A stretch of 64,000 nucleotides of DNA, taken from the NCBI GenBank assembly GCA_963794525.1, contig CAWCEC010000004.1, forward strand, positions 177,637 through 241,636, read 5' to 3'. The DNA is from an uncultured Chloroflexia bacterium (GTDB taxonomy: Bacteria > Chloroflexota > Limnocylindria > Limnocylindrales > CSP1-4). Position 1 is the stretch's first letter. Each line of letters begins with the position of its first letter. The notes beneath the pieces are model-generated. The model did not search any database, had not been told where the DNA came from, and saw only the letters and a list, made by a program, of their open reading frames with translations. Both the position numbers and the translations under genes were made by a program. Below are positions 16,170 through 36,472 of the stretch, one piece after another.

Positions 16170-19100
16170 CTAGACGACCCGGCGCAGCGTCCTCGTGCGG
16201 GTGCGTCGAGCCGTCGCTCGAGGCGCGGCCGCTGCGGTCGCCTTCCCAAGCGAGCCGAGCAGTACGGCCGTCTGCTCGGCGGGCACGGGGCGACTGAACA
16301 GGTAGCCCTGCCCGAGGTCGCAGCCGAGCTCGCGCAGGCGATCGGCCTGCTCGTCGGTCTCGATGCCCTCGGCCACCACGCCGATCCCGAGGCCGTGCGC
16401 CAGTGCGATGACCGCGTCGACGATCGAGCGGTCGGCGGTCTCCTCGATACCGGCCACGAAGGTGCGATCGATCTTGATCGTGTCGAGCGGCAGATGTTTC
16501 AGGTAGGACAGCGACGAATAGCCCGTCCCGAAGTCGTCGAGCACCAGCCGCACGCCCAGGCCGCGGAGGTCGCGCAGCGCTCGGATCCCTGCCTCGGATT
16601 GGTCCATCAGGACGCTCTCGGTGATCTCGAGCTCGAGCGCGTCGGCCTCGAGGCCGGTATGCGCCAGGGTCTGGCGGACATCCTCGACCAGGTCGGTCTG
16701 GGTGAACTGGCGCGCCGACAGGTTGACCGACACGAACAACGGTGGCGTCCCCTTGCCAGTACGCGTGGCGTTCCAGACGGCCGCCTGGCGGCACGCCGCG
16801 TCAAGCACCCAGCGCCCGAGCGGCACGATCAGGCCGGTCTCTTCGGCCATCGGGATGAACGCGAGGGGCGGCACGAGCCCGCGCGTGGGGTGCTGCCAGC
16901 GGACGAGGGCTTCGAACCCGACCACGACACCGCTCACGAGCGAGACGATCGGCTGGTAGTGGACGCGCAGCTCGTCGCGATCGAGCGCGCGGCGGAGGTC
17001 GTTCTCGAGGTCCAGTCGCTCGAGCGACTGGTCGCTCATGGATGGCTCGAACAGGAAGTGGCGCTGGCCGGCGTTGCCCTTGGCGCGGACCATGGCGATC
17101 TCGGCTTCGCGCAGGAGATCGTCCGGGCTGCCCCGACCAGGGGCCGCCAGTGCGATCCCGATCGATGCGGTGAGGAACCAGTCGCGACCGTTGAGCGGGA
17201 ACGGCTCGCGTAGCTCCTGCGCGATGCGCTCGGCGATCCGGTGCGCCTCGGCTGCGTCGGCGACGGGGTCGAGCACGAGTGCGAACTCGTCGCCACCGAA
17301 GCGCGCCACGGTGTCGCCCGGGCGGAGGCTGTTGACGAGGCGCTGTCCGACCGCCATCAGCAGCCGGTCGCCGGCGACGTGCCCCAGCGTCTCGTTCACG
17401 ACCTTGAAGCGGTCGAGATCGAGCAGGATCACCCCGATCGAGCCGTCCGCGTCGGTGCCGTGCCCTGCCAGCGAGTGGGCGATGCGGTCGGCCAGCAGCT
17501 CACGGTTGGGCAGGCCGGTCGTGGGGTCGTACAACGCGCCGCGTTGGGCGACGTCGACGAGCCTGGCGTTCTCGAGCCCGATGGCCGCAAGCCGCGCGAA
17601 GCTCGAGAGCGTCTCGAGGTCGCGCTCCGACCATGTCCGGGCCGTCGTGCCAGCAGCAAGGCCCAGCACGCCGATGACCCGGCCGGCCGACTTGAGCGGC
17701 GCGGCGATCGTGGCCCCCAGCTGCCAGCCCGCCGCGACGGTCACCGAGCGCCCGGGCCAGGCGTCGTAGTCGGCCACCGCGAACGGCTGGCCGGTGCGGA
17801 CGACCTCGCCGCCGACGCCCTCGTCGAGGGCGATGGACCCCTCCTCCTGACCGGCGAACATCCCGAGCCCGACCCGCAGGACGAGCCGGTTCGCGTCCGA
17901 CTCCACGAGATCGACCCAGCCATGCGGCGTCCCAAGGACCGACGATGCCCGGTCGAGGATGGTCGAGAGCATGGCGTTGGGATCACTCCGGTCCAGGAGG
18001 GCCAGCGCGGTTTCGTCGAGCGCGCGCACATAGGGGTCGGCGAGCGTCGGTTCGGGCTGCAGGCGGCTGTCGCCCTTGACGAGGTACAGCGCCCGATCGG
18101 CCACGGCGACCAGCTCGTCCTTGGTGCGGCCGTCCTCCGGATAGCAGGCCACGCCGGCGCTGATCGTCACGCTGGGGCGCGGGTCATTGTCCGTCGTTCC
18201 CTCGACGCTCGTGCGATCGCGCACGGCTCGACGGATCCGCTCGGCGACCTCGTGCGCGACGACCCGATCGGCGCCGGGCAGGATCGCAGCGAACTCGTCG
18301 CCGCCGTAGCGGTAGATCCGATCCGTATCGCGGGTGGCACGCGTCATCGCGGCTGCGATCTCGACCAGCAAGCCGTCACCGGCGGGATGGCCGAGCGTGT
18401 CGTTGAAGCGCTTGAAGGCGTCCAGGTCGAGCATGAGCACGGCGAACGGGCGCCCACCCTCCACGGCCGCGCCCAGCTCCCGCTGGAACGCGCCATGGTT
18501 GCGCAGCCCGGTCAGCGCGTCCTGCTCGGCCCGGACGCGGACCTCGCGGTGGGTCTGCGCGTTCTGCATCGCGATCGACGCCTGGCCTGCGAACAGCTTG
18601 GTCAGCTCGTACTCGTTGGTCGTGAAGTGCGCGTCCGACTCGCCGAGCCGGCCGATGTTGAGCGTACCGATGGTCTCGCCCCTGACCAGCAAGGGGACGA
18701 CCATGATCGACTCAGGCTCGAACGGGGTGTTCGGGACCTGCACGGACCGGGCGTCGAGGTGGGCATCGTTCGCCAGGACCGCCTCCCTGTGATCGATGAC
18801 CCAGCCGGTGATCCCCGGCCCGAGCGGGCTCTCGTCGGCCAGGATCTCGTCTGCGAACCGGTCGCGCGCGATGACCGCGCGACGCACGCCGGCCGCGCGG
18901 TCGACCTGGTAGATCGTCAGCGAGTCGTATGGCACGATCGCACGCAACGAGTCGGCGATGAGCTCCAGCACGCCGGCCGGGTCGAGCGTCCCGAGCAGTC
19001 GCTCGTTGACCTCGAGGAGCCGGCGCTGCCCTTCGAGCTGGAGCTCCATCTCGGCTTGCTGGCGGCGCAGTCGATCCAGGTTCTCGGCGTTGATCACGGC

Positions 19101-20171
19101 CTGGACCGCCGCCGCGGCGAAGATGGTCAGCGTCACCTCGTCGTCGGCGTCGAAGCGATCGATACCCATCGCCGACACCACGATCACGCCCCGCACGAGC
19201 TCGTCCTGGACCATCGGCACCAGCAGCATCGACTCCGGCCGTCGATCGCCGAGGATCACGCTGCGTGGGTCGCGCGTGGCATCCCGCAGTCGGAGCGGAC
19301 GCCCGTTGGCCGCGACCCAGCCTGTCAATCCCTGGCCGATCGGCATCCGGAGGGTCTCCATGTCCGGCTGGGTGGTGCCCAGGAACGTGCCCTCGAAGGC
19401 GATCGGCTCGCACATGCCGGTCGGATGGTCGACGTGGTACACCCGGATCGTGTCGTGCTCGATGAGGCGCTTCGCCTCCTCGACGATGGCTGCCGCGATG
19501 GATGCCCGGTCGTGCAGGCCGCTCAGCCGACCGGCCAGTTCCGCGATCGACGACAGGCGGTCGGCCAGCCCACGACGGGAGTCGGCCAGCCTGGCGGTGC
19601 CGATCGCCGTCGCCATGTGGTCGCCGAAGGCGCGGGCGAGCGCGCGCTCGGCGGGCGTCCACCCGTAGGCCTCGCGGTGATAGAGGACGAGCAGCCCCAG
19701 TGCGTCGCCGCCGTAGACGAGCGGCACGAAGCACACGGAACCGACACCGATCGCCTTGTACACCTCGCGCAGCGCGGGCGTGGTCGAACGCATGTCGCGA
19801 TCGAGCACGCGCACGCGGCGCCTGCGTATGGCGTCCATGCCGGCCGTGCGGGCGTCCTTGGGCAGGGAGTTGACCGCGTCGATGATCACCGGCGGCAGGC
19901 CGCGCTGGACGGCCAGTTCGAGCGGATGCTCCGCGGTCGGGTCGTAGGTCCACAGTGCCGCCCGATCGACACCGAACAGCACGAACGCCTCGTCGATGAT
20001 GTCGTCGAACAGACCGGTCAGATCGCGCCGCCCGCTGACCTTTGCCGCGATCCGGCCGAGCGCGTCGGCCCGCGTCGGATCGGTCGTCTCCGCGCGGCGT
20101 GCCGCCGCGGTCGGACGCCGCGACGCCGCTCGCCGTTTCTCGGGCGCGGGTCGGTGCTCGGCGCTGGACAT
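16170..20171 (-). CDS. Diguanylate cyclase/phosphodiesterase: GAF-GAF-GAF-GGDEF-GAF-GGDEF-EAL
   Basis: Two cyclase domains (DALTGL...RYGGDEF; DPTTGLPNR...RFGGDEF) and EAL motifs FEALVRW, VNLS, EITES, DDFGTGYSSL, KIDR, AEGIE, QGY. Four GAF-like repeats. Confidence 0.93.
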   Translation of the reverse strand: MSSAEHRPAPEKRRAASRRPTAAARRAETTDPTRADALGRIAAKVSGRRDLTGLFDDIIDEAFVLFGVDRAALWTYDPTAEHPLELAVQRGLPPVIIDAVNSLPKDARTAGMDAIRRRRVRVLDRDMRSTTPALREVYKAIGVGSVCFVPLVYGGDALGLLVLYHREAYGWTPAERALARAFGDHMATAIGTARLADSRRGLADRLSSIAELAGRLSGLHDRASIAAAIVEEAKRLIEHDTIRVYHVDHPTGMCEPIAFEGTFLGTTQPDMETLRMPIGQGLTGWVAANGRPLRLRDATRDPRSVILGDRRPESMLLVPMVQDELVRGVIVVSAMGIDRFDADDEVTLTIFAAAAVQAVINAENLDRLRRQQAEMELQLEGQRRLLEVNERLLGTLDPAGVLELIADSLRAIVPYDSLTIYQVDRAAGVRRAVIARDRFADEILADESPLGPGITGWVIDHREAVLANDAHLDARSVQVPNTPFEPESIMVVPLLVRGETIGTLNIGRLGESDAHFTTNEYELTKLFAGQASIAMQNAQTHREVRVRAEQDALTGLRNHGAFQRELGAAVEGGRPFAVLMLDLDAFKRFNDTLGHPAGDGLLVEIAAAMTRATRDTDRIYRYGGDEFAAILPGADRVVAHEVAERIRRAVRDRTSVEGTTDNDPRPSVTISAGVACYPEDGRTKDELVAVADRALYLVKGDSRLQPEPTLADPYVRALDETALALLDRSDPNAMLSTILDRASSVLGTPHGWVDLVESDANRLVLRVGLGMFAGQEEGSIALDEGVGGEVVRTGQPFAVADYDAWPGRSVTVAAGWQLGATIAAPLKSAGRVIGVLGLAAGTTARTWSERDLETLSSFARLAAIGLENARLVDVAQRGALYDPTTGLPNRELLADRIAHSLAGHGTDADGSIGVILLDLDRFKVVNETLGHVAGDRLLMAVGQRLVNSLRPGDTVARFGGDEFALVLDPVADAAEAHRIAERIAQELREPFPLNGRDWFLTASIGIALAAPGRGSPDDLLREAEIAMVRAKGNAGQRHFLFEPSMSDQSLERLDLENDLRRALDRDELRVHYQPIVSLVSGVVVGFEALVRWQHPTRGLVPPLAFIPMAEETGLIVPLGRWVLDAACRQAAVWNATRTGKGTPPLFVSVNLSARQFTQTDLVEDVRQTLAHTGLEADALELEITESVLMDQSEAGIRALRDLRGLGVRLVLDDFGTGYSSLSYLKHLPLDTIKIDRTFVAGIEETADRSIVDAVIALAHGLGIGVVAEGIETDEQADRLRELGCDLGQGYLFSRPVPAEQTAVLLGSLGKATAAAAPRATARRTRTRTLRRVV

Positions 20172-20412
20172 GGGTGTGGGGCGCGACCTCCCTGGGGCGA
20201 GCAGAGCCCGGCCGTCCGCACCTCGGACCGCACTGGGACGGTACGGTCTGGTGCCGTGCAGAGCGATAGCCCATCGGTACGGGGTGCGGCGACACCTCGG
20301 CGGTGCATGCCCGCGTTGATGGCTGCGCGCGCTCGCTCACGCACATCAGAGTGCGCTCGCTCGCGTGCTCACCATCGCCTTGGCCTGCGCCGCCATGGCG
20401 TCGCCGCGGGAT

Positions 20413-21132
20413 CTAGCCGGGTAGAAGGTCTCCGACCGAGTCGATGATCGTGTCGGCCGCTTGGAGATCCTCGTCCGTCCCGACGCCGCTTCGGACCCCG
20501 ATCACGCGCCCGGCACCCGCCGCGCGCGCCATGTCGAGGTCCGCCGGCGTGTCGCCGACCACCGCGACCCGCGAGGGTTCCGTCAGGAACGCGTGGCACA
20601 CCGCGAACACCGGGTCGGGCGCGGGCTTCACCTCGAACCCGTCGTCCCCGCAGACCATCGCCCCGACCAGCTGGCGGACCCCCAGTGAACGGAGCGCGGC
20701 CTCGGTCGCCGCACGATCGTCGGTCGTGACGACGGCGATCCGCCGCCCGTCGGCCCGCAGCCCCTCGAACACTGTCACGAGGTCCGCCAGCGGTACCGCG
20801 GACGCGGTCGGATCCGGGACGAACCAGGCTGTCTCGGTCGCGCGTCGCGCGGCGGCGATGCTCGGGCACCAGCGGCGCAGTACGCGGGCGACGGTCTCCT
20901 CGATACCCGCCATCGTCGCCGTCGCCAGCGCACCGCCGGGTGCGACCCGGCCACTGCTCGGGTCGAAGCCGATCGTCGCGAACACGTCGAGCGACACCGG
21001 TCGGCGGATCGTGGCGTCCAGGCGATCACCCAGCTCGCGCGCCCAGCCGCCCCACATCGCATGGAAGTCGATGAGCGTGCCGTCCTTGTCGAAGATGACG
21101 GCATCGATGCCCGCCAGGTCGACGGCCGTCAC
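20413..21132 (-). CDS. HAD-family phosphatase (phosphoglycolate-phosphatase-like)
   Basis: IFDKDGTL, VTTD, KPAPD, VGDTPAD; GTGA overlap with the upstream oxidoreductase stop. Confidence 0.9.
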   Translation of the reverse strand: MTAVDLAGIDAVIFDKDGTLIDFHAMWGGWARELGDRLDATIRRPVSLDVFATIGFDPSSGRVAPGGALATATMAGIEETVARVLRRWCPSIAAARRATETAWFVPDPTASAVPLADLVTVFEGLRADGRRIAVVTTDDRAATEAALRSLGVRQLVGAMVCGDDGFEVKPAPDPVFAVCHAFLTEPSRVAVVGDTPADLDMARAAGAGRVIGVRSGVGTDEDLQAADTIIDSVGDLLPG

Positions 21133-23597
21133 CCGCGCAGCCGCCGCATCTCCGGATCGAACAGCGGGTCCGTGGCGACCGTTGCCGGGACGGCCTCGCC
21201 GAAATAGCGGATCGTCACGGGCTGCCCGGGTCGGGCGACGTCCGACGGCAGCCACGCCAACGCGATGGGGGCGTCGACCTCGGGCGAGTAGCCGTAGCCG
21301 GCGCTGGTCACGTAGCCGGCGGGGCGGCCGTCGACGTGGACGGGCTCCTTGCCCATCATGACGGCGGCCTTGTCGGCGATGACCAGTGGGACGAGCCGCC
21401 GCTCGACAGACTCGGCGCTGCGACCGACGAGCGCGTCACGGCCGACGAACTCGCCCTTGTCCATGCGAACGGCGAACCCGAGACCGGCCTCGAACGGGTC
21501 ATGCTCACTGGTCATGTCGACGCCCGACAGGCGGTAGCCCTTCTCGAGTCGCAACGACCCGAACGCACTCCGCCCGGCGGCGATGATCCCGTGCTCCTGC
21601 CCGGCTGCCCACAGCGTGTCCCACAGCTTCAGGCCCATGTCAGCGGTCGTGTACAGCTCCCAGCCGAGCTCGCCGACGTACGACACGCGGAGCGCGGTGA
21701 CCGGCACGCTCCCCACCCACAGCTCGCGGGCCTGGAAATAACGGAACGCGTCGTTGGACACGTCCGCATCGGTGACGGATGCGAGGACGTCGCGTGCGCG
21801 CGGACCCCACAGCCCGATGCAGCAGGTCCCGCTCGTGATGTCGCGGACGCTGACGCTGCCGTCGCTCCGGGCGCGACGCTCCAACTCGTCGAGATCCAGC
21901 GGGCCGTTGGCGCCGACCTGGAAACGATCCGGGCCGAGGCGGGCGACGGTCAGGTCGCTCCGGATCCCGCCGCGAGCGTCGAGCAGGAGGCTGTACACCA
22001 CGGTCCCCAACGGACGGTCGACCCGGTTCGTCGTCAGGTGGTCGAGGAAAGCGGCGGCACCCGATCCCTCGACCGCGATCCGCTTGAGCGGCGTCACGTC
22101 GAACATCGCGACGCCATCGCGCGTCGCTCGCGCCTCGGCGCCGGCGATCGGATGCCAGTAGCGCGCGGCCCACGCGTTGCGGCGATGGATCTCGCCGCCG
22201 TAGCGGCCCAGCAGTCGCTCGTTGACGCCGAACCAGTGCGGCCGCTCCCAGCCCCCACCCTCGAGGAAGTACGCCCCGAGCTCCTGCTCGCGCTCGTAGA
22301 ACGGCGACGTCCGCAGTGGCCGCGGCTCCTCCATCGGCTGGAGGGGGTGGACGATGTCGTACACCTCGACGTAGTTCTGGATGCCCCGGTCGTGGACGAA
22401 CGACGGCGACAGCTGGTGCGCCTCGAACCTGTTGAGGTCGCAGTCATGGAGGTCGAAGGTCGAGCCGCCGTCGACCAGCCATTCGGCCATCGCCCGCCCG
22501 ACGCCAAGCGCATGGGTCACCCAGACCGCCTCGGCCAGCCAGAATCCGGCCACGTCGCGTGACTCACCCATCAGTGGGAAGCCGTCCGGCGTGAACGAGA
22601 AGATGCCGTTGATCGCATGATCGATGCGCGCGTCCGGCGCGCGCAGCGCCGGGACGAGCTCCTCGGCCCACGACCACGTCTCGGCGAACGTGTCGGGCGT
22701 GAAGTCCAGCACCGACGGCATCACCGGCGCGTCGCGCGGGTGGAGGAGATCGGAGGCGTCGACCGGCAGTGGCACGTGCCCGTAGCCGCCGACAGCCAGG
22801 CGGTCCGGGTATTCGCGGAAGTACATGTCGCGGTCCTGGACGCGGATGTTCGGGTGGATCGCCTCACGCTCCGGTGGGATCCCGAAGGCCACCACGTCGG
22901 GCAAAACCGTCGTCCAGCTGAGCTGATGGGCAAGCGGCTGGAGCGCCACGGTCATCCCGACCATCGCGCCGATGCGCGGGCCCCAGATGCCGGCGGCACA
23001 GACCACGATGTCAGCCGGGACCTCGCCGCGCTCCGTGAGGACGCCGCGCACCCGCCCGTCATCCGTCCGGATGCCGGTCACGGTGTGATCACCCAGGAAC
23101 CGGGCGCCACCCTCGATCGCGCGACGCGCCTGCGCCTCGGACACGCGTACCCCATCGGTCAGGCCGTCGGACGGCACGTGGTACGCACCGACGATCCGGT
23201 CGCGATCGACCAGCGGCCACAGTCGCACGGTCTCCTCGGGGTCGATCACCCGGCCGTCGAGACCCCACGACTCCGCGAAGTCGCGCCGGCGGTGGAGCTC
23301 GGCCAGCCGCTCCGGCGTGAGTGCAAGCTCCAGGCTGCCGACGGGGTTCCAACACCAGCGCCCGTCCAGGTCGAGGGAGGCCGCCTTCTCGACGCTGTAG
23401 CGGGCGAAGCCCGTCATCGTCTTCGACGCATTGGTCTGGAAGATGATGCCGGGCGCATGCGAGGTCGAGCCGCCTGTCTTGAAGAGGCCGCCCTGCTCGA
23501 CGACCGTGACGTCCGACCAGCCGCGCAGGACCAGCTCATCGGCCAGCGAGCAGCCGACGATGCCGGCTCCGATGATCACGACCCGTGGTGTTCGCAT
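21129..23597 (-). CDS. GcvT-domain FAD-dependent oxidoreductase (dimethylglycine/sarcosine dehydrogenase family), paralog 1
   Basis: IIGAGIVG, GGSTSHAPG, FTPDG, GWERP, VSYVGELGWE, SLRLEKGY. An alternative GTG start lies at 23672. Confidence 0.92.
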   Translation of the reverse strand: MRTPRVVIIGAGIVGCSLADELVLRGWSDVTVVEQGGLFKTGGSTSHAPGIIFQTNASKTMTGFARYSVEKAASLDLDGRWCWNPVGSLELALTPERLAELHRRRDFAESWGLDGRVIDPEETVRLWPLVDRDRIVGAYHVPSDGLTDGVRVSEAQARRAIEGGARFLGDHTVTGIRTDDGRVRGVLTERGEVPADIVVCAAGIWGPRIGAMVGMTVALQPLAHQLSWTTVLPDVVAFGIPPEREAIHPNIRVQDRDMYFREYPDRLAVGGYGHVPLPVDASDLLHPRDAPVMPSVLDFTPDTFAETWSWAEELVPALRAPDARIDHAINGIFSFTPDGFPLMGESRDVAGFWLAEAVWVTHALGVGRAMAEWLVDGGSTFDLHDCDLNRFEAHQLSPSFVHDRGIQNYVEVYDIVHPLQPMEEPRPLRTSPFYEREQELGAYFLEGGGWERPHWFGVNERLLGRYGGEIHRRNAWAARYWHPIAGAEARATRDGVAMFDVTPLKRIAVEGSGAAAFLDHLTTNRVDRPLGTVVYSLLLDARGGIRSDLTVARLGPDRFQVGANGPLDLDELERRARSDGSVSVRDITSGTCCIGLWGPRARDVLASVTDADVSNDAFRYFQARELWVGSVPVTALRVSYVGELGWELYTTADMGLKLWDTLWAAGQEHGIIAAGRSAFGSLRLEKGYRLSGVDMTSEHDPFEAGLGFAVRMDKGEFVGRDALVGRSAESVERRLVPLVIADKAAVMMGKEPVHVDGRPAGYVTSAGYGYSPEVDAPIALAWLPSDVARPGQPVTIRYFGEAVPATVATDPLFDPEMRRLRG

Positions 23598-23727
23598 CGT
23601 GCCGGTCAGGATACGGGCGTTCGATCGGGCATCGCGCTCCGCGATGCCCGTCGGAACGATGGAATCGACCACCTATACTCCGTCGCACGCTGCTCCCCCG
23701 GGAGCGAGCGCGGCCAGGAGGAGGGTG

Positions 23728-24558
23728 ATGGCCAGCGAGCCCGGCGTCACCGGCGAAACGACGACCCTCGCGGATCCGCTGGAGGAATCGCTCCGGCTCG
23801 TCGAGGTCGCCGATTCGCGCGGATTGACCCTTCGACTGATGGGCGGTATGGCCATCCGCGCCCACGCGCCACGCTGGCCGGCGCGGACCCGACGCACCGA
23901 AGTTGACCTGGACTTCGCGACGACCTCGCGGGATCGCTCGGCCGTCTACAAGCTGCTCGAGTCGGAGGGCTACACACCCGATCGCCAGCAGAACGCGCTG
24001 TTCGGCCAGAAGCAGGCGTATTTCGTCGACGTGCCGCGCAAGCGACCGGTCGATGTGCTCGTCGACGCGCTCGAGATGTGCCACCGCGTCGAGTTCGGAC
24101 CGCGGCTGGACAAGTCGAAGCCGACCCTGCCGCTGGCCGAGTTGCTGCTGTCCAAACTCCAGGTCGTCAAGATCAACCGCAAGGACGTCCTCGACGCGCT
24201 GATCCTGCTGGCGGAGCACCCGCTCGCCCAGGACGATGGTGTCGACGCCCTGCACGGGCCGGGCGCGATCAACGTCCCGCGCATCCTCGATGTCACCTCG
24301 AACGACTGGGGCTGGTGGCGGACGGTCAGCGGGAACCTCGAGAAGCTCGACCAGTTCCTGACGACCGAGCTCAAGCCCGACGATCTCGACCTCGGGACCG
24401 GTGAGCCCGTGAAGTTCGATCCGGCGGCGCAGGTCGCCGCGCTGCGCGCAGCCATCGATGGCGCACCGAAGTCGACCCGCTGGCGGCTGCGAGCGCGCGT
24501 CGGTGAACGCGTCACGTGGTACGCGGAGCCCGAGGAGATGGAGCACCGAGCGCTATGA
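23728..24558 (+). CDS. Uncharacterised nucleotidyltransferase-fold protein
   Basis: LMGGMA...VDLDF (hG[GS]...DhD), a third acidic strand PVDVLVD, and LLLSKLQ...RKDVLD; AGGAGGAG RBS. Confidence 0.75.
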   Translation: MASEPGVTGETTTLADPLEESLRLVEVADSRGLTLRLMGGMAIRAHAPRWPARTRRTEVDLDFATTSRDRSAVYKLLESEGYTPDRQQNALFGQKQAYFVDVPRKRPVDVLVDALEMCHRVEFGPRLDKSKPTLPLAELLLSKLQVVKINRKDVLDALILLAEHPLAQDDGVDALHGPGAINVPRILDVTSNDWGWWRTVSGNLEKLDQFLTTELKPDDLDLGTGEPVKFDPAAQVAALRAAIDGAPKSTRWRLRARVGERVTWYAEPEEMEHRAL

Positions 24559-25493
24559 GGATCTTCTTCGCAACCGACGTCCACGGCTCCGAGGTGTGCT
24601 GGCGGAAGTTCCTGAACGCCGGCGCCTTCCACAAGGCCGACGTCCTGATCATGGGCGGCGACATGACCGGCAAGGCGATGGTCCCGATCGTCCATCGAAA
24701 CGGGGGCTGGGAGGTCACGCTCCAGGAACAGCTCCACCAGCTGGCGACCGAGGACGAGCTCCTGGCGATGGAGAAGCGGATCTCCGACCGCGGCTACTAC
24801 CCGGTCCGCCTCGAGCCTGACGAGCTGGAGGCGTGGCAAGCCGACCAGTCGCTGGTCGATGCCCGCTTCAAGGACGAGATGCTGCGCAACGTCGAGCGCT
24901 GGATGGCCCTCGCCGACGAGCGCCTCGAGGGGAAGGGCATCCGCTGCATCGTGTCGCCTGCCAATGACGACATGTTCGAGATCGACCCGATCATCGCCGC
25001 CGCTCGGCTCGTCGAGCTGGGCGAGGCCAACACGATCGCCCTGGACGGCATCTCGCTCGTCTCGACCGGCTGGGCCAACCCGACACCGTGGAAGACGTTC
25101 CGCGAGCTTCCGGAAGACGAGCTGCGGGCTCGGATCGATGGTCTTGTCGCCGAGGTCCCCGACCCTCGGCGCTCCATCTTCAATTTCCATGCTCCGCCCT
25201 ACGGCTCGAACCTCGATTCGGCGCCCAAGCTCGATGCCGACCTCAAATACGTCGCGGGCGGACAGGCGCTGGTCCCTGTCGGGTCGCACGCGGTCCGGGA
25301 CGCGATCAGCGCGTACGGGCCGATGCTGTCGCTCCACGGCCACATCCACGAGGGACGGGGCGCCGTGAAGATCGGCCGCACCCTCGCCGTCAACCCCGGC
25401 AGCACCTACGAGGATGGGGTGCTCCAGGCCGCGATCGTCGACCTCGACGTCAAGAAAGGCGAGGTGAAGCGCTATCTGCTGATCAACGGCTGA
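24555..25493 (+). CDS. Calcineurin-like metallophosphoesterase (Icc-related)
   Basis: ATDVHG, GGDMTG, PANDD, NFHAPP, LHGHIHE; ATGA overlap with the nucleotidyltransferase stop. Confidence 0.88.
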   Translation: MRIFFATDVHGSEVCWRKFLNAGAFHKADVLIMGGDMTGKAMVPIVHRNGGWEVTLQEQLHQLATEDELLAMEKRISDRGYYPVRLEPDELEAWQADQSLVDARFKDEMLRNVERWMALADERLEGKGIRCIVSPANDDMFEIDPIIAAARLVELGEANTIALDGISLVSTGWANPTPWKTFRELPEDELRARIDGLVAEVPDPRRSIFNFHAPPYGSNLDSAPKLDADLKYVAGGQALVPVGSHAVRDAISAYGPMLSLHGHIHEGRGAVKIGRTLAVNPGSTYEDGVLQAAIVDLDVKKGEVKRYLLING

Positions 25494-25537
25494 CAGGACC
25501 GGTGGGGGAGGGAATCAGGAGGGAACAGGAGGGACAC

Positions 25538-27331
25538 ATGGCAACTGGCACTGCGTCCCCGTCGCTCTTCCTCAGGAATGCGACGGGACTCGTCAAGGGC
25601 TGGTCCGCGTTCGACGCGTTCACCTACTCGTTCATGTCGGTCAACCTCGTCACGCTGGGCATGTTCTACAGCCTGGCCGTGTTCGCGTACGTGCCGACGG
25701 CATCGCCCGTGCTGTCGATCCTCATCGCCGCGATCGCAGTCACGTTCCTGGCGGTGGCATATGCGGCACTGATCGCCGTCATGCCGCGTGCCGGCGGCGA
25801 CTACGTGTGGCAGACGCGGGTGCTCGACGGGCTGCCCGGCATCATCACCGGCGCGATCACCGGTGGGGTCGCGTCCTACCTGGTCGCGCAGGCCGTCGGC
25901 CTAGACTCGACGATCGCGCTCGTCGCCGGGGTGATCGGCCTCGTCGCGGGCGGCTTCATCGGAAGGATGCGTGGCGGCATCGGGTTCGTGCTCGCCGCCA
26001 CCGGCTGGTGGTTCATCCTCGCGATGTGGGCGCCGATCTACGGCGCCATCCTCAAGCTCGAGTTCTTCCAGCCGCTGGCAGCGCTCCTGGGTTCGACTGC
26101 CGGCGTCGACTTCTTCGGCTCCGACACTGGCACGCTGGTCGTGTCGCTCATCGTCATCGGCCTGACGTCGTGGCTGGTCGCCCTCGGGATGGCGGGCTAC
26201 GCGCGGATCCAGCGCGTCTGCCTGTATCTCGGGCTGATCGGCTTCGCGATCATGGCGATCCTGATGCTGGTCTCATCGCAGGACCAGTTCCGGGCCGCGT
26301 TCGACACGGCGAACATGCGGATGTTCGGGGTAGCAGGTGCGTACGACAAGACCATCGCCGACGCCGCCACGAATGACGCCTTCACCGGTTCACTCGAACC
26401 GCTCGCGATGGGCACCGACCTGACTGCGACGCTGGGCGCCGCCGTCGTGATGCTGCCCTTCATGCTGTTCTGGATCCTGTACCCGAACTGGGGCTCGACG
26501 CTCTACGGCGAGGTCCGCGGCTCGGGCGATTTCCGCAAGGTCCTCAACGGGATGCTGGGCGGGATCTGGGTCACCGCGATCCTGGCGATCGTGTTCGTAT
26601 TGCTGGCAGCCAAGACGTTCGGCTGGCTGTTCTTCAACGCCACCAACGCGAACTTCATCAATTGGTTCTATGGCTACACCACGACCGATCCGACCGTCCC
26701 GATCTGGAGCTATCCACCGCTCCTCGCCTCGTACCTGATCGACGTCCCGATCTTCCAGATCGCGATGGTCGTGCTGTTCGCGGCGTGGTTCCTCGGCTGG
26801 TCCGGGACGTTGTTCCTGTCGTCGACGCGGATGATCTTCGCGGCGGCGTTCGACCGCATCCTTCCGGAGCGGGCAGCGCAGGTGTCCGAGGGCCGCGGCG
26901 TCCCCGTGACGGCCCTGCTGTTCATCATGATCCCGGCCATCGTCGTGAGCGTGATCTACTCGTTCTCGGCGGACTTCCGGGCGCTGACATTGGACGCCAC
27001 GCTCGTGATCGCCGTCACGTTCCTCGGGAGCACCGTCGCCGCCACGATCCTGCCGTGGTGGAAACCGCAGCTCTTCGACAACTCGCCGATCGCGCGGCTG
27101 AAGATCCCGATCACGGTGGCCAGCCTGATCATCTCGGTGATCCTGGCCTACACGATCTACTTGTGGCTGACCGATGCGCTCTATGGCATCGGTGTCGGCA
27201 ACGCCAACTCGATCATCTTCCTGGGCGTGCTCTACGGGCTCGCCGCGATCGTGTATGTCGCCGCGCGGGTGTACCGCCGGTCGCAGGGCGTCGACCTAGA
27301 CGCGATCCACGCGGAGATCCCCGCGGAGTAG
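25538..27331 (+). CDS. APC-superfamily amino acid permease
   Basis: LFLRNATGLVK, MPRAGGDY, R-MIFAAAFDRILP; about 14 hydrophobic segments. Confidence 0.88.
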   Translation: MATGTASPSLFLRNATGLVKGWSAFDAFTYSFMSVNLVTLGMFYSLAVFAYVPTASPVLSILIAAIAVTFLAVAYAALIAVMPRAGGDYVWQTRVLDGLPGIITGAITGGVASYLVAQAVGLDSTIALVAGVIGLVAGGFIGRMRGGIGFVLAATGWWFILAMWAPIYGAILKLEFFQPLAALLGSTAGVDFFGSDTGTLVVSLIVIGLTSWLVALGMAGYARIQRVCLYLGLIGFAIMAILMLVSSQDQFRAAFDTANMRMFGVAGAYDKTIADAATNDAFTGSLEPLAMGTDLTATLGAAVVMLPFMLFWILYPNWGSTLYGEVRGSGDFRKVLNGMLGGIWVTAILAIVFVLLAAKTFGWLFFNATNANFINWFYGYTTTDPTVPIWSYPPLLASYLIDVPIFQIAMVVLFAAWFLGWSGTLFLSSTRMIFAAAFDRILPERAAQVSEGRGVPVTALLFIMIPAIVVSVIYSFSADFRALTLDATLVIAVTFLGSTVAATILPWWKPQLFDNSPIARLKIPITVASLIISVILAYTIYLWLTDALYGIGVGNANSIIFLGVLYGLAAIVYVAARVYRRSQGVDLDAIHAEIPAE

Positions 27332-27583: not shown

Positions 27584-30109
27584 ATGGGCGCGCTCCCGGC
27601 GCGAGCGGACGTCGTCGTCATCGGCGCGGGCATCGTCGGCAACAGCATGGCCTACCACCTGGCCGAGCAGGGCTGGCGGGACATCGTGCTAGTCGACAAG
27701 GGACCCCTGCCCAGTCCGGGCGGATCCACCGGCCATGCCTCGAACTTCATCTTCCTGACCGACCACTCGAAAGAGATGACGGCGTTCACCGTCGACAGCG
27801 CCCGCCAGTACCGCGAGCTGGATGTGTACGACGAGACCGGCGGCATCGAGGTCGCTCGGACACCTGAACGGATGGAGGAGCTCACGCGACGCCAGGCGTC
27901 GTCGACCTCGTGGGGGATCGAGGGGTCCCGGTTGCTGACCCCTGCCGAGGTCAAGGAGATGGTCCCGTTCATCGACGAGTCGGTGATCCTCGGTGGGTGG
28001 TACACGCCGGGCGTCGGCATCGTCGACTCGCTCCAGGCCGGGACCCTGATGCGCGACAAGGCCCAGAAGATGGGCGCGTTGACGGTCGCGGCGGGCGTCG
28101 AGGTCACCGGCATCGACGTGGTCGACGGGCAGGTCCGCGGCGTGCGCACGGACCAGGGTGACATCGCCGCCGATACGGTCGTCATCGCGTGCGGCGTGTG
28201 GAGCCCGCGGATCGCCCGGATGGCCGGGGCGTCGATCCCGTTGACGCCGGCGGTCCACCAGATGATCGACATCGGCCCGGTGCCCCAGTTCGAGCACACG
28301 ACCAAGGAGGTCGGCTTCCCGATCGTCCGCGACATGGACACCAACATGTACGAGCGCCAGCACGGCACCGGCTTCGAGGTCGGCTCGTACGCCCACCGGC
28401 CGATCCTGATGGACGCCGACGACATCCCGTCGATCGAGGCCTCGGCCCTGTCGCCGACGATGTTGCCGTTCACCCAGGAGGACTTCGACCCGCAGCTCGA
28501 GGATGCGCTCGAGCTGTTCCCCGAGATCGTCGGCGACGAATCCGTTGGCGTGAAGCTGGCGATCAACGGCCTGCTCGCATTGACGCCCGACGGCAACCCG
28601 ATCATCGGCGAGACCCCCGAGGTGAAGGGCCTCTGGTCCGCGGCCGCGATCTGGATCAAGGAAGCGCCAGGGATCGCCAAGGCGATCGCCGAGTGGATGA
28701 CCACAGGCGAACCGGAGATCGACCCGCACGGATCGGACATCGCCCGCTTCTATGACCATCACAAGACCGCGCAACACATCGCGGCGCGGGCCAGCGAGGG
28801 GTTCAACAAGACCTACGGCATCGTCCACCCGATGGAGCAGTGGGCGTCGAACCGGCCCATCCGGCTGTCGCCGGCCTACGACCGACATGTCGAGCTGGGA
28901 GCCGAGTTCTTCGAGGCGGCGGGCTGGGAACGGCCGTACTGGTACGGCACGAACGAGGGGCTTCTCGGCGAGTACGGCGATCGGGTGATGCCGCGTGAGG
29001 CCGAATGGGAATTGCGCTGGTGGTCGCCGATCATCAACGCGGAACACCTCGCGATGCGCGATCGGGCCGGTCTCGTCGACCTGTCGGCGTTCGCGATCTT
29101 CGACATCAGCGGGCCCGGGGCGCTCGCCGCGCTGGAACGGCTCTGCGTCAATCGCGTCGACGTGGCGCCGGGCCGGACGGTCTACACGCCGCTGCTCAAC
29201 TCGGCGGGCGGCATCCTGGCCGACCTGACCGTGATGCGCCTGGCCCATGACCGCTTCCGGGTCGTGACGGGCGGCGGCATGGGGATGCGCGACCGCAAGA
29301 TCTTCCAGGACGCGATGCCAGCCGACGGTACCGCGCACCTGCACGACGTGACCAACGCGTTCACGACGTTCGGGCTGTGGGGCCCGCGGGCACGCGACAT
29401 CCTCGGCGTGGCCGCCGACGGCGGCGCGGACATCAGCCACAAGGGCTTCCCGTTCCTGACGTCCAAGACCGTCGAGATCGACGGCGTCCGGACACTCGCG
29501 TCACGCATCAGCTACGTCGGCGAGCTGGGTTGGGAGATCTACGTCCCGATCGAGCAGGGGTTACGTGTCTGGGACGCGCTGTGGCGGGCCGGCCAACCGC
29601 ACGGGCTCGTGCCGGTCGGGATCGGCACGTACGCCGTGACCTCGCGGCTGGAGAAGGGCTACCGGGCGCATGGCGCCGAGCTCGAGCTCGATTTCGATCT
29701 CGTCGAGGCCGGCATGGCGCGACCGACGGTGAAGGACGACGACTTCGTCGGGCGCGAGGCCTATCTGCGGAAGCGCGACGAATCGCCCGTGGCGATCCTG
29801 TGCACGTTGACCGTCGAGGACCACACTTCGAAGAAGGGCGTCAAGCGCTTCATGCTCGGCCGCGAGCCGATCCTGGCGGAGGACGGCAGCCCGCTGGTCG
29901 ATGCGAAGGGCCGCCGCTCGTACGTGACGAGCGCGGGATCCGGCCCGTCGGTCGGGAAACATCTGCTGATGTCGTATCTGCCACCGGAGCAGGCGGTCGA
30001 GGGCACCAAGCTCCTCGTGGAGTACTTCGGCGAGCGCTATCCCGTGACCGTGGCCGTCGCAGGCAGCACGCCGCTGTTCGACGCCGAGAACGACCGGATC
30101 CGGAGCTGA
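27584..30109 (+). CDS. GcvT-domain FAD-dependent oxidoreductase (dimethylglycine/sarcosine dehydrogenase family), paralog 2
   Basis: VIGAGIVG, GGSTGHA, LTPDG, GWERP, ISYVGELGWE, SRLEKGYR; GGAGGAGG RBS. Confidence 0.92.
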   Translation: MGALPARADVVVIGAGIVGNSMAYHLAEQGWRDIVLVDKGPLPSPGGSTGHASNFIFLTDHSKEMTAFTVDSARQYRELDVYDETGGIEVARTPERMEELTRRQASSTSWGIEGSRLLTPAEVKEMVPFIDESVILGGWYTPGVGIVDSLQAGTLMRDKAQKMGALTVAAGVEVTGIDVVDGQVRGVRTDQGDIAADTVVIACGVWSPRIARMAGASIPLTPAVHQMIDIGPVPQFEHTTKEVGFPIVRDMDTNMYERQHGTGFEVGSYAHRPILMDADDIPSIEASALSPTMLPFTQEDFDPQLEDALELFPEIVGDESVGVKLAINGLLALTPDGNPIIGETPEVKGLWSAAAIWIKEAPGIAKAIAEWMTTGEPEIDPHGSDIARFYDHHKTAQHIAARASEGFNKTYGIVHPMEQWASNRPIRLSPAYDRHVELGAEFFEAAGWERPYWYGTNEGLLGEYGDRVMPREAEWELRWWSPIINAEHLAMRDRAGLVDLSAFAIFDISGPGALAALERLCVNRVDVAPGRTVYTPLLNSAGGILADLTVMRLAHDRFRVVTGGGMGMRDRKIFQDAMPADGTAHLHDVTNAFTTFGLWGPRARDILGVAADGGADISHKGFPFLTSKTVEIDGVRTLASRISYVGELGWEIYVPIEQGLRVWDALWRAGQPHGLVPVGIGTYAVTSRLEKGYRAHGAELELDFDLVEAGMARPTVKDDDFVGREAYLRKRDESPVAILCTLTVEDHTSKKGVKRFMLGREPILAEDGSPLVDAKGRRSYVTSAGSGPSVGKHLLMSYLPPEQAVEGTKLLVEYFGERYPVTVAVAGSTPLFDAENDRIRS

Positions 30110-30119
30110 TCGAGGGCCG

Positions 30120-30884
30120 ATGCGCATCCTCGTCCTGGTCAAGCGCGTTCCCGCGACCGGCGGACGGATCGTCCTGACCGAGGATGGCCGAGCGATCGAC
30201 ACGCGCTTCCTCGGGTTCGTCGTCAGCCCCCACGAGGAATGCGCTGAGGAGGAGGCCGTCCGCCTGATCGAGGCGAACGGCGGCGAGTCGGTCGTCCTGA
30301 CGCTCGGCGCGCCGGAGGCCGCCGACCAACTGCGCGATGCGATGGCGATCGGCATCGACCGCGCGGTCCTGCTCGAGACCGACGGGTCGGACTGGGATCC
30401 ATTCGCGACCGCGGCGGCGATCACCGACGCGGTCCGTGGTCTGGAGGCGGCCCATGGGCCGTTCGACCTCATCCTCGTCGGCAACGAGTCGGCCGATTCG
30501 GGCGGGTACCAGGTGGGCATCCGGCTGGCCGTCGACCTCGATCGACCGATCGCCACGGGGATCAAGGCGCTCGACATCAGCGATGGCGTCGCGACTGCTC
30601 GTCGCCAGGTCGCGGGTGGTGCCGACGTGTTCGAGCTCCCGCTGCCGGCGGTCGTCGGCGTCCGCGAGGGCATCAACCTGCCCCGCTACCCGTCCGTGCC
30701 GGGGCGGTTGCGGGCGAAGAAGAAGGACATCGAGCGCATCGTCCCGGAGCGTCGTCCGGGCGGCCCGACCCTCGAGCGCCTCCAGCTGCCGGTCGAGAAG
30801 GAGCAGCACGTCGAGATCCTCGGGACCGGTCCGGAGGCGGCGCCCCGGGTGGTGGCGCTGCTGCGCGAGCTGGGCGTCCTGTGA
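30120..30884 (+). CDS. etfB: Electron transfer flavoprotein beta subunit
   Basis: VLVKRVP, AMAIGID-RA, GNESAD, INLPRYP. Confidence 0.9.
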   Translation: MRILVLVKRVPATGGRIVLTEDGRAIDTRFLGFVVSPHEECAEEEAVRLIEANGGESVVLTLGAPEAADQLRDAMAIGIDRAVLLETDGSDWDPFATAAAITDAVRGLEAAHGPFDLILVGNESADSGGYQVGIRLAVDLDRPIATGIKALDISDGVATARRQVAGGADVFELPLPAVVGVREGINLPRYPSVPGRLRAKKKDIERIVPERRPGGPTLERLQLPVEKEQHVEILGTGPEAAPRVVALLRELGVL

Positions 30885-31882
30885 GCGGCGTCCTCGTCCT
30901 GGTCGAGCTGGCCGGCGACGCGCCCGACCGGCTGAGCGCCGAGGCGCTGGGTGTCGCGCGCGGTGTGGCGGATGCGCTCAGGGGCGCGGTCCACGCGGTG
31001 GTCGTCGCCGGGTCGGGCGACGCCGACGCCGCTGCGTCCGCCGCGCCCGCCCTCGGGTCGTACGGCGTGACAACGGTGCACCTCGCATCGAGCGACCGGC
31101 TCGAGGCCTACGCGCCGGCCGCCTGGGCCGCGGCAGTCGAGGGTGTCGTATCCAGCGGCTCGTACGATGCGGTCCTCGCCTCGGCTGGCGAGCGGGCGAC
31201 GGAGATCCTGGCCCATGTCGCCGCCCGCATGGGCATACCCATGGCGGCCAACGTCATCTCGATCGAGCCGGGTGAGCGCTGGCGGCTCACCCGACAGCGC
31301 TGGGCAGGGAGCCTGCTCGAAGAGGCATGGCTCGACGGGACGCCTCGGCTGTTCACCGTTGCCGCCCATGCCGTCCCGGCGATGGAGCCGTCCGCCTCGT
31401 CGGCACCCGCGGAGGTGGTCCGCGTCGAGCCGGCGATCAGCGATGCCGACCTGCGCGCGCGCGTGGTCGGCCACGACGTCGCCGGTGGCGCCGGCGTCTC
31501 CCTGTCCGACGCCAAGGTCGTGGTCGGTGGGGGGCGTGGCATGGGCAGCGCTGACGCCTTCGCGATGCTCGACGAGCTGGCCGCTGAACTCGGCGCGGCT
31601 GTCGGCGTCTCCCGCGTCGCGACGAGCCTCGGCTGGCGGCCGCACGCCCAGCAGATCGGCCAGACCGGCACGCGGATCGCCCCGGATCTCTACATCGCGT
31701 GCGGGATCAGCGGCGCGATCCAGCATATCGTGGGCGCCAAGGCGGCCAAGCGGATCCTGGTGATCAACTCCGACCAGGACGCCCCGATCTTCCGGCGGGC
31801 GAGCTACGCGGTCGTGGGTGACGTCCACGCCGTGGTCCCGGCTATCACGGCCGAGATCCGCCGGGCCCGTAGCGGAGGTTGA
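30881..31882 (+). CDS. etfA: Electron transfer flavoprotein alpha subunit
   Basis: VVGGGRG, AVGVSR, QIGQTG, LYIACGISGAIQH, INSDQDAPIF. Confidence 0.93.
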   Translation: MSGVLVLVELAGDAPDRLSAEALGVARGVADALRGAVHAVVVAGSGDADAAASAAPALGSYGVTTVHLASSDRLEAYAPAAWAAAVEGVVSSGSYDAVLASAGERATEILAHVAARMGIPMAANVISIEPGERWRLTRQRWAGSLLEEAWLDGTPRLFTVAAHAVPAMEPSASSAPAEVVRVEPAISDADLRARVVGHDVAGGAGVSLSDAKVVVGGGRGMGSADAFAMLDELAAELGAAVGVSRVATSLGWRPHAQQIGQTGTRIAPDLYIACGISGAIQHIVGAKAAKRILVINSDQDAPIFRRASYAVVGDVHAVVPAITAEIRRARSGG

Positions 31883-32920: not shown

Positions 32921-33673
32921 CTACCCCTCCCGCAGCCCGGCCGCGATGCGGGCCGCACCCGTCACCAGCAGCTGCGCCAGGGCGGCGTCGCGCCCCGCCG
33001 GTGGGAATCGGTACGACGGTCCGTGGATGTGGACGGCGGCGATGACCTCGCCCGACGCATCGGCGATCGGCGCCGCGACCGACGCGATCCCGTCGTCGAA
33101 CTCCTCGATCGCCCAGGCATAGCCTCGCCTGCGCACGTCTCGTAGGCGCTCGCGGACCGCATCCGGATCCGACAGGGTCTGGGGCGTAAATCGCTCGAGC
33201 GTTGGTTGCGCCAGGTAGCGCTCGATCGCCGCCGGTGTCCGGAACGCCAGCAGCACCTGCCCCGACGAAACGGCATGGAGCGGCGCCCTGGCGCCGGTCC
33301 AGTCACGTACGACGACCGGGTTCGGCGTGTCGACCTGGTCGATGTAGTGGATGAGGTCCCCATCGGGCACGCCGAGACCGGCGGCTTCACCGGACGCCGC
33401 TGCGAGATCCGTGAGGACCGGCCGGCCGACCGCGGCCAGCGAGCGGATCAACGAGAACCCGCCAGCCAGCATCACGAGCCGCGGTCCCAGCCGGTACGCC
33501 GTCTCGCCGGGGACCTGCTCGACCGCGCCCTCGCCGACGAGGGTCGCGAGCAACCGAGCCGCCGTCGACTTCGGGAGGGCGGCCCGTTCCGCGACCTCGG
33601 TCACGCCGAGCGGGCCCTCATCGAGGGCGTCGAGCACGGCGAAGGCGCGTCTGATGGACTGGACGCTGGACAT
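32921..33673 (-). CDS. IclR-family transcriptional regulator
   Basis: VQSIRRAFAVL, HTH GVTEVAERAALPKSTAARLL, AVSSGQVLLA, RRRGYA, GIASVAAPI. Confidence 0.93.
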   Translation of the reverse strand: MSSVQSIRRAFAVLDALDEGPLGVTEVAERAALPKSTAARLLATLVGEGAVEQVPGETAYRLGPRLVMLAGGFSLIRSLAAVGRPVLTDLAAASGEAAGLGVPDGDLIHYIDQVDTPNPVVVRDWTGARAPLHAVSSGQVLLAFRTPAAIERYLAQPTLERFTPQTLSDPDAVRERLRDVRRRGYAWAIEEFDDGIASVAAPIADASGEVIAAVHIHGPSYRFPPAGRDAALAQLLVTGAARIAAGLREG

Positions 33674-33708
33674 CGGTACCTTCGTGTTCTAGATTTCGCA
33701 GTCTGGCT

Positions 33709-33745
33709 GGTTCCATCATACGGTACGGTTCCACGATGTGGAACC
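33709..33745. promoter_or_regulatory. Putative IclR operator GGTTCCAC-GAT-GTGGAACC with a degenerate tandem copy 18 bp upstream
   Basis: Perfect 8-3-8 palindrome at 33727-33745, and GGTTCCATCATACGGTAC at 33709, in the divergent gap between iclR and the corrinoid operon. Confidence 0.7.
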
Positions 33746-33771
33746 CCAGACCAGCGTTCGGAGCGAACCCG

Positions 33772-34485
<714 letters not shown>

Positions 34486-36462: not shown

Positions 36463-36472
36463 CGGCGGGCCG

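Follow-up and report, generated by a model that had tools for sequence, protein, structure and literature searches.

A candidate uptake module of a nucleotidyltransferase, a metallophosphoesterase and an APC permease shared by Chloroflexota, Actinomycetota and an archaeon

The locus described here raises the question of what a nucleotidyltransferase and a phosphoesterase are doing beside a permease in the middle of a catabolic gene cluster. It lies in a stretch of 64,000 nucleotides from contig CAWCEC010000004.1 of an uncultured Chloroflexia bacterium, referred to below as the window, and comprises three genes on the + strand. Near-identical proteins and loci bear names that place the bacterium in the class Limnocylindria of the Chloroflexota. 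Gene 1 (23728–24558) encodes a predicted cytoplasmic nucleotidyltransferase (NTase) of the Pol-beta fold with 276 amino acids, assigned from its open reading frame (ORF), ribosome-binding site, overlap with gene 2 and fold. Gene 2 (24555–25493) encodes a predicted cytoplasmic binuclear metallophosphoesterase of 312 amino acids, assigned from Pfam Metallophos and its fold, and gene 3 (25538–27331, starting with ATG) encodes a permease of the APC superfamily with 597 amino acids, assigned from Pfam AA_permease_2. Gene 1 is preceded by an AGGAGG ribosome-binding site, its TGA stop codon overlaps the ATG of gene 2 in the sequence ATGA (24555–24558), and gene 2 is separated from gene 3 by 44 bp. 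The GC content at third codon positions is 0.83–0.88 in all three ORFs, which in a genome of 70% GC indicates that they are real coding frames. No Rfam matches and no promoter-like or terminator-like sites above chance were found in or around the trio. A sequence-only reading of this DNA had described the three co-oriented genes, the ATGA coupling of the first two, the catalytic motifs of both enzymes, the APC permease and the position of the block between two GcvT-type dehydrogenases, and each of these was recovered here. It had also proposed that the trio is a module, and the neighbourhood survey found the trio conserved, in shuffled order, in two bacterial phyla and on an archaeal plasmid. 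Genes 1, 2 and 3 very probably form a single functional uptake unit that is portable across pathways for nitrogen-containing solutes.

The distribution of the genes was examined in two phyla. Among 301 Chloroflexota genomes gene 1 was present in 63 and gene 2 in 61, and both were found in 59 (59 of the 65 carriers). The single-gene carriers consisted of four genomes with gene 1 only, all of them fragmented or incomplete metagenome-assembled genomes, and two with gene 2 only. Among 251 Actinomycetota genomes both genes occurred in 30 of 31 carriers; no genome had gene 1 only, and the one with gene 2 only carries it at a contig edge. The copy numbers of the two genes were mostly equal within a genome, for example 2/2, 3/3 and up to 5/5. 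Fisher p values were approximately 4e-55 for Chloroflexota and 5e-38 for Actinomycetota, values that ignore shared ancestry; inheritance as a block is nevertheless an insufficient explanation of the co-occurrence because the gene order is shuffled. The permease subfamily of gene 3 was present in 58 of the 59 carriers of genes 1 and 2, compared to none of 18 genomes that lack the pair but share their genus, family or class, and the matches to this subfamily that were placed all lie beside genes 1 and 2.

The order 1-2-3 was kept in close relatives at 62–97% identity, and the orders seen overall were 1-2-3, 2-3-1, 2-1, and 3-1 with a divergent gene 2. Another arrangement consists of an operon of agmatinase, gene 1 and amidase, with the permease and gene 2 adjoining each other 4–6 kb away. 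On a plasmid (NZ_CP031312) of the archaeon Halobellus limi CGMCC 1.10331 the order is IclR, iron-containing alcohol dehydrogenase (Fe-ADH), aldehyde dehydrogenase (ALDH), gene 2, gene 1 and permease. A survey of 56 loci gave 41 in which the three genes are present 1:1:1 within 15–20 kb. Gene 2 is the tightest partner of the permease: in 30 of 52 cases the two were direct neighbours on one strand, separated by a median of approximately 100 bp, and their pairwise distances gave a Pearson correlation of 0.88, a Spearman correlation of 0.65 and a partial correlation of 0.85, while the distance correlations with gene 1 gave r values of 0.45–0.59. At two loci (L034 and L135) a lone gene 1 is surrounded by two gene 2–permease pairs, and gene 2 outnumbers gene 1 in several genomes, so that one gene 1 transferase apparently serves more than one permease. 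The distance correlations had hinted that gene 1 is a generic component of the module; this was dropped since labels of catabolic context placed on the trees of gene 1, gene 2 and the permease required 3–4 label changes on each and fitted all three about equally.

The motifs and predicted structure of gene 1 assign it to the Pol-beta-fold nucleotidyltransferases, with intact catalytic residues and outside every curated family. The catalytic motif G39-G40 ... D60-L-D62 is encoded at 23842–23913 (+), and the third catalytic aspartate, D109 within VDVLVD, at 24052–24054 (+); D109 was invariant both in an alignment of 77 diverse homologues and in the alignment of modules. A further motif of the AbiEii/MenT type, L141-S-K143-L ... 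R151-K152-D153..D156, contains the residues K143-L-Q145 ... K152-D153..D156 encoded at 24154–24195 (+). K143, Q145 and D156 were invariant in the 77 homologues and in 51 modules, and D153 was invariant in the 51 modules and, like K152, nearly so in the 77 homologues. The complete set of residues invariant in the 77 homologues is G39, D60, D62, D109, H119, K143, Q145, D156, W194, G195, W252, R255, G259 and W264. The AlphaFold2 model of gene 1 had a predicted local distance difference test (pLDDT) score of 91.9 and revealed a minimal NTase core followed by a C-terminal helical domain of its own of approximately 100 residues, which contains the invariant W194, W252, R255 and W264.

Comparison of this model with the PDB using Foldseek returned only distant minimal NTases, namely MenT1, ANT(2'')-Ia, LnuA, TM1012 and 5uvd (E about 1e-3, TM-scores of 0.35–0.6 on the target). 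MenT1 was the top match; the cyclase CdnE was also among the top matches, the match to the cGAS/DncV-like nucleotidyltransferases (CD-NTases) being weak (TM 0.28). As a single sequence gene 1 had no match among PDB sequences, while the family profile gave ANT(2'')-Ia and LnuA as best matches, at marginal E-values of 0.006–0.06 over the N-terminal helix-GG-DxD region. A whole-library search with gene 1 returned 1990 representative clusters (clustered at 50% identity) at E<=0.001. Against PF14907 (NTP_transf_5) gene 1 scored 18.5 bits, below the gathering cut-off of 31.2, and 57 of the 77 homologues had weak or sub-threshold matches to PF14907, the best at E=2.1e-8; these profile scores suggest a fringe relative of that family. 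The window gene had no match to PF08843 (AbiEii), for which one of the 77 homologues matched at E=0.004, and no PADLOC model matched gene 1. Taken over Pfam, NCBIfam and PADLOC, there was no family for gene 1, and genes 2 and 3 received only superfamily-level assignments.

Gene 1 and the AbiEii/MenT proteins (DUF1814, PF08843) share a minimal Pol-beta core of the form GG..DxD..D with K-L..(R/K)-D..D. They differ in that gene 1 falls below the Pfam threshold, has its own C-terminal domain and sits in a metabolic context, and in that no helix-turn-helix (HTH), MenA or AbiEi antitoxin is adjacent; its conserved partners are the metallophosphoesterase and the permease, and a fused HTH was seen in a single distant homologue. 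ANT(2'')-Ia (AadB) and LnuA were the best profile matches and are Foldseek neighbours, but with approximately 15% identity; they are antibiotic-resistance enzymes of 160–185 amino acids without the C-terminal domain and without a phosphoesterase or permease partner. No fusion of gene 1 with gene 2 and no fusion of either enzyme with the permease was seen when fusions were sought. At locus L043 (7951–10755) an open frame of 935 codons contains a PfkB kinase, a SIS domain and a gene 1 homologue. It represents a fusion or, alternatively, three genes that lack stop codons between them, and recalls frl-type fructosamine catabolism with an APC permease. The distant homologue with the HTH (L169, 3548–5547) carries it at the N-terminus, of MarR/IclR type, and is preceded by a radical-SAM gene and followed by a second gene 1 paralogue. 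No gene 2 is visible on this contig of 5.5 kb, and the context is unlike that of the permease modules.

Sequence and structural comparison identify gene 2 as a probable member of the metallophosphoesterase superfamily with intact residues and a non-canonical motif III. The five motifs of the superfamily are present as D8xH10, G35D36, P-A-N137-D-D139, H212 and H261-G-H263-I-H265. In motif III the residues N137-D138-D139 (24963–24971, +) replace the usual GNH(D/E), so that the asparagine ligand is retained and the catalytic histidine is changed to aspartate. This substitution was invariant in alignments of both 24 and 50 family members, which makes it a trait of the family and not a sign of decay. 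The metal ligands D8, H10, D36, H212, H261, H263 and H265 were likewise invariant in both alignments. Further invariant residues in the set of 50 modules were K18, K40, Y82, T177-P178, R183, P214-P215, D221, G243-S244 and N280-x-G282-S283, and W179 was invariant in the 24 sequences and at least 90% conserved in the 50. Gene 2 scored 27.9 bits against Pfam Metallophos (PF00149, cut-off 21.5) and 19.6 bits against Metallophos_3, below the cut-off of 28.2.

The AlphaFold2 model of gene 2 (pLDDT 95.2) matched aq_1956 best in Foldseek (E=5.7e-13), followed by TT1561 and then by MPPED2, SbcD/Mre11, Lmo2642, YfcE and MJ0936. These nearest structures place gene 2, as modelled, on the diesterase side of the superfamily. 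The closest folds, at E-values from 5.7e-13 to 1e-6, are the structural-genomics Metallophos_3 proteins aq_1956 (2yvt) and TT1561 (1uf3) together with MPPED2, in which motif III is also non-canonical. These three proteins have 225–275 residues, functions that are weakly defined at best, and no equivalent of the cap subdomain of approximately 85 residues that is inserted between motifs II and III of gene 2. The gene 2 profile gave only marginal matches to PDB sequences, LpxH and Rv0805 among them, and the PADLOC candidate PDC-S10 matched gene 2 partially, over residues 236–294 (motif V) only.

Gene 3 appears from its sequence to be a divergent carrier of the APC superfamily. It scored 33.9 bits against AA_permease_2 (PF13520, cut-off 27) and retains the generic APC motifs PRxGGDY, GE and R..A...D...P, while no relative was found among PDB sequences at E<=1 and no PADLOC model matched. 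Directly after the last transmembrane helix the protein ends in the tail GVDLDAIHAEIPAE-COOH (27287–27328, +). The same tail, with the consensus G-[IV]-[DN]-h-x3-[YFH]-x-E-[IL]-P-x-[ED]-COOH, closes nearly all of 55 aligned module permeases including the archaeal one, the glycine being substituted in two. In the window protein the glycine is G584, at least 90% conserved, and the proline is P595, which is invariant. The motif was present in 10 module permeases and in none of 9 APC permeases encoded outside the modules in four of the same genomes. The conserved tail appears to be an observation new to this analysis; cytoplasmic and precisely terminated, it resembles a docking motif, and we infer that it may act as one. 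The window permease and its closest relatives also contain a hydrophobic, glycine-rich insertion of approximately 46 residues (residues 99–144, 25832–25969). The permeases of other modules are without this segment, and matches from other genomes are split at residues 98 and 145.

In the window the trio is flanked by enzymes of methylamine metabolism. A dimethylglycine/sarcosine-dehydrogenase-like (DMGDH-like) enzyme with the domain architecture DAO-FAO_M-GCV_T-GCV_T_C (Pfam, NCBIfam) is encoded at 21129–23672 on the − strand, divergent from gene 1; its position beside the trio is kept in close relatives only. A second dehydrogenase of the same architecture follows at 27584–30109 (+). It is succeeded by EtfB (30120–30884, +), EtfA (30881–31882, +) and, on mixed strands at 32921–40083, an IclR regulator (− strand) and then methyl-transfer genes, all identified by Pfam. 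The region 33736–40083 holds a complete-looking corrinoid set of a B12-binding protein, DUF1638, a PF13769 protein, a pterin-binding methyltransferase, a RACo activator and an MttB-family methyltransferase. Together with the two flavin/GcvT dehydrogenases and EtfBA this set would form an island for the demethylation of betaine to glycine in which 'anaerobe-type' and flavin steps are mixed. The position of the trio inside such an island suggests glycine betaine, or a related quaternary or otherwise methylated amine, as the probable import of the permease; the cargo is probably a betaine-type compound without a hydroxyl group. The region 16170–21255 was compared with relatives of the locus (L001–L009 and L046–L082). 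A giant GAF-GGDEF-EAL protein (16170–20171) and a HAD gene are common to the window and these relatives. In the relatives the HAD hydrolase and the left dehydrogenase are separated by an ABC transporter, made up of a solute-binding protein, two permeases and a TOBE-containing ATPase, and an aldehyde dehydrogenase gene converges on the permease; the transporter and the aldehyde dehydrogenase gene are both missing at the corresponding positions of the window.

Around the modules of other genomes each neighbour family occurred in at most 12 of the 56 loci and none was conserved throughout. The neighbours represent several different catabolic themes: DMGDH-like enzymes, MttB, Fe-ADH, ALDH and choline-kinase-like genes; FGGY kinase, SDR, DeoR, BtpA and sugar-phosphate isomerase; PfkB with SIS; class II aldolase with aminotransferase and HAD; and agmatinase, amidase, Amidohydro_3, hydantoinase A/B and CN-hydrolase. 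The regulators at the side of the modules were of the DeoR, GntR, IclR, LacI and Lrp types. Choline/ethanolamine-kinase-like genes (PF01633) at seven loci (L036, L040, L045, L133, L136, L137 and L141) lie nearly always directly beside a DMGDH-like gene, often as two pairs per cluster, which suggests that these dehydrogenases act on, or feed, phosphorylated amino alcohols. A standalone protein with four CBS domains adjoins gene 1 at L040, L136 and L137, and a cNMP-binding protein of 141 amino acids lies beside the module at L043, L127 and L131, giving standalone CBS or cNMP-binding proteins at 6 of the 56 loci. In a distant module (L172, 348–5352) a PLP-dependent decarboxylase (PF00282) and an ORF of 590 amino acids come after genes 1 and 2, a further amine-related context.

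The mechanism that we tentatively prefer, while recognising that it may well prove wrong, is that an opposing pair of nucleotidyl-transfer and hydrolysis activities, recruited by the tail, gates uptake at a complex of the permease and gene 2. It builds on the computed co-inheritance, folds, catalytic residues, tail and coupling of gene 2 to the permease; from these we infer the nucleotidyl transfer, its target, the docking on the tail and the effect on transport. Gene 1 would place a nucleotidyl group (AMP or UMP) from an NTP on a target that is constant across modules, the permease–gene 2 complex and not the cargo, and gene 2 would hydrolyse the resulting phosphodiester again. The enzymes would be brought to the transporter by docking on the cytoplasmic tail of the permease, and the cycle of addition and removal would gate the uptake of nitrogen-rich solutes. 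In favour of this gating model are the invariant catalytic residues of both enzymes and the nucleotide-sensing CBS and cNMP-binding proteins beside some modules, which are of the kinds fused to signalling NTases elsewhere. Over approximately 50 modules gene 2 had the highest mean pairwise identity (0.43), ahead of gene 1 (0.39) and the permease (0.28), and the columns conserved at 90% or more made up 16, 11 and 4%, respectively. This greater sequence conservation of the enzymes fits a common enzymatic target combined with diversified cargo.

The interpretation offered by the sequence-only reading is supported in part, for the conserved unit, the NTase fold and the intact metallophosphoesterase, and its add/remove switch stays a proposal. 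That reading had listed three possible targets for a nucleotidyl switch, of which the permease was retained and the other two are unlikely. The module-specific tail and the tight linkage to gene 2 make the permease, or gene 2 bound to it, the most plausible site at which the enzymes would act. Of the three, the imported amine has the lowest probability, because the cargo context varies while genes 1 and 2 stay conserved and because the window cargo is probably without a hydroxyl group. A catabolic enzyme is an unlikely target because no catabolic neighbour is conserved across modules.

Several points weigh against gating of the permease complex. The conservation asymmetry is weak evidence, since membrane proteins diverge faster anyway, and gene 1 is not demonstrably generic, since all three trees track the catabolic context equally. 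A covalent mark on the permease has no obvious site, because the permease contains no family-specific invariant Ser, Thr or Tyr; the one hydroxyl residue conserved in it, Y89, is generic to APC proteins, and Y, F and H all occur at the aromatic position of the tail, unlike gene 2, in which Y82, T177, S244 and S283 are invariant hydroxyl residues. One would not expect a general regulator to be copied along with each permease. Small-molecule O-nucleotidyltransferases are among the nearest relatives of gene 1 in both sequence and structure, and we know of no de-AMPylase with the metallophosphoesterase fold.

The strongest competitor, which we consider unlikely, is that the chemistry is directed at the cargo: gene 1 would nucleotidylylate the emerging cargo for trapping or activation, as in group translocation, gene 2 would resolve the diester to phospho-cargo or free cargo, and the tail would tether the enzymes. 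ANT(2'')-Ia and LnuA adenylylate hydroxyls of small molecules, the gene 2 profile touches LpxH, which is an NDP-sugar pyrophosphatase, and alcohols, sugars and kinases are present in many contexts (Fe-ADH with ALDH, choline-kinase-like, FGGY, PfkB). Gene 2 also co-diversifies with the permease, and all three genes track the catabolic context. The inferred cargos are nevertheless very different (betaines, amino alcohols, sugar derivatives, and guanidino, amide and hydantoin compounds), yet many enzyme residues are invariant outside the metal and NTP sites, and a single gene 1 can flank two permease–gene 2 pairs. ANT/Lnu-type chemistry is further disfavoured because the probable betaine-type cargo of the window offers no hydroxyl, and a nucleotide that is added and then hydrolysed would constitute a futile cycle unless cleavage took place on the nucleoside side. 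A related reading, in our judgement improbable, makes nucleotidyl transfer a mechanistic part of the transport cycle, with a LeuT-fold permease that works only in complex with a tail-bound phosphodiesterase. Gene 1 would then load NMP onto the complex or onto the cargo as it emerges, and gene 2 would reset this state by hydrolysis. If true, this would be NTP-driven or vectorial uptake by a secondary carrier, a new energy coupling or group translocation common to Bacteria and Archaea. Comparably improbable is a local second-messenger circuit, in which gene 1 would make a nucleotide-derived signal upon transport or sensing of cargo and gene 2 would degrade it, the targets of the signal being the permease or nucleotide-binding proteins and regulators encoded nearby. 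The structural neighbours MPPED2 and Lmo2642 and the profile match Rv0805 are cyclic-nucleotide phosphodiesterases, CdnE is among the structural matches of gene 1, and cNMP-binding and four-CBS proteins stand beside the module at three loci each. Such sensor proteins are confined to the six loci given above, a diffusible signal would cause cross-talk between the paralogous modules of a genome, of which there can be up to five, and the CD-NTase match is weak, the motif III of gene 1 being of the AbiEii/MenT and not the cGAS/DncV type.

The close link of gene 2 to the permease, sometimes with no gene 1 nearby, would also be expected if the cargo were a phospho-amine such as phosphocholine or phosphoethanolamine, with gene 2 as the phosphatase releasing the amine and gene 1 as a salvage or branch-point enzyme. 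At several loci the pair is followed by Fe-ADH and ALDH, which would suit a release of choline. This proposal is very doubtful: nearly all carrier genomes have gene 1, a phosphatase would be working against the choline-kinase-like genes of the same clusters, amidase and hydantoinase contexts do not fit, and the nearest structures to gene 2 are diesterases. Far less probable still is a toxin–antitoxin or phage-defence pair, in which an AbiEii/MenT-like gene 1 would nucleotidylylate tRNA and be neutralised enzymatically by gene 2. MenT1 as top Foldseek match, the K-L..K-D..D motif and the partial PDC-S10 match on gene 2 speak for such a pair. Context, partners and conservation led to its rejection: gene 1 has no PADLOC match, no above-threshold AbiEii match and no HTH antitoxin partner, the pair lies inside catabolic operons and keeps its tie to a permease across two bacterial phyla and in an archaeon, and the orthologues have 74–97% identity with no mobile elements as neighbours. 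Repair of tRNA or of RNA ends was rejected as well, the conserved third partner being a permease.

The gating model has parallels in known systems. In AmtB-GlnK-GlnD an ammonium channel is combined with a PII protein and a Pol-beta-fold uridylyl/adenylyl-transferase that also has a hydrolytic removing activity. The logic is alike in that the gene of a nitrogen-compound transporter is tightly linked to a cytoplasmic partner under nucleotidyl addition and removal, which for the trio is proposed. The trio differs in having no PII protein, in that the remover is a separate calcineurin-like metallophosphoesterase instead of an HD domain, in the APC/LeuT fold of the transporter, and in a transferase that is a minimal MenT/ANT-like NTase and not of the GlnD/GlnE kind. 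Reversible nucleotidylylation of the GlnD/GlnE type acts on a defined Tyr of a partner protein; in the trio a transferase and a hydrolase are present with intact residues, and no conserved target residue was found on the permease. In the HEPN-MNT system HepT-MntA the minimal NTase MntA adenylylates its partner protein HepT, and in pairs of the SidM/SidD type a separate metal-dependent hydrolase removes AMP; the eraser folds and the targets differ from those proposed here and neither system includes a transporter. The COG2905/DUF294 signalling nucleotidyltransferases have cNMP-binding, CBS and NTase domains fused in one protein. Compared by description only, their CBS and cNMP-binding domains correspond to separate neighbouring genes at some modules, while the NTase family, the phosphoesterase fold (exonuclease or PHP in those systems) and the transporter family differ and set them apart. 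By analogy, the logic of the trio resembles that of AmtB-GlnK-GlnD, MntA-HepT and SidM/SidD, with every component drawn from a different family. The literature searched held no description of the trio, of the function of PF14907 or of the function of aq_1956 and TT1561. The earlier statement that no described pathway contains this trio is borne out: no described pathway or curated family explains it.

The module is present in approximately one fifth of the sampled Chloroflexota genomes and one eighth of the sampled Actinomycetota genomes. It adjoins genes for the breakdown of betaine or choline, of amino sugars, and of guanidino and amide compounds, pathways of major importance for the turnover of organic nitrogen in soil. 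Its proteins are currently annotated as 'hypothetical', 'metallophosphoesterase' and 'APC permease', and even a negative outcome would better annotate thousands of genomes. If the two enzymes do gate or drive the permease, this would represent a new form of control of a secondary carrier, and would provide the first function for the aq_1956/TT1561-like phosphoesterases and for a large orphan family of nucleotidyltransferases.

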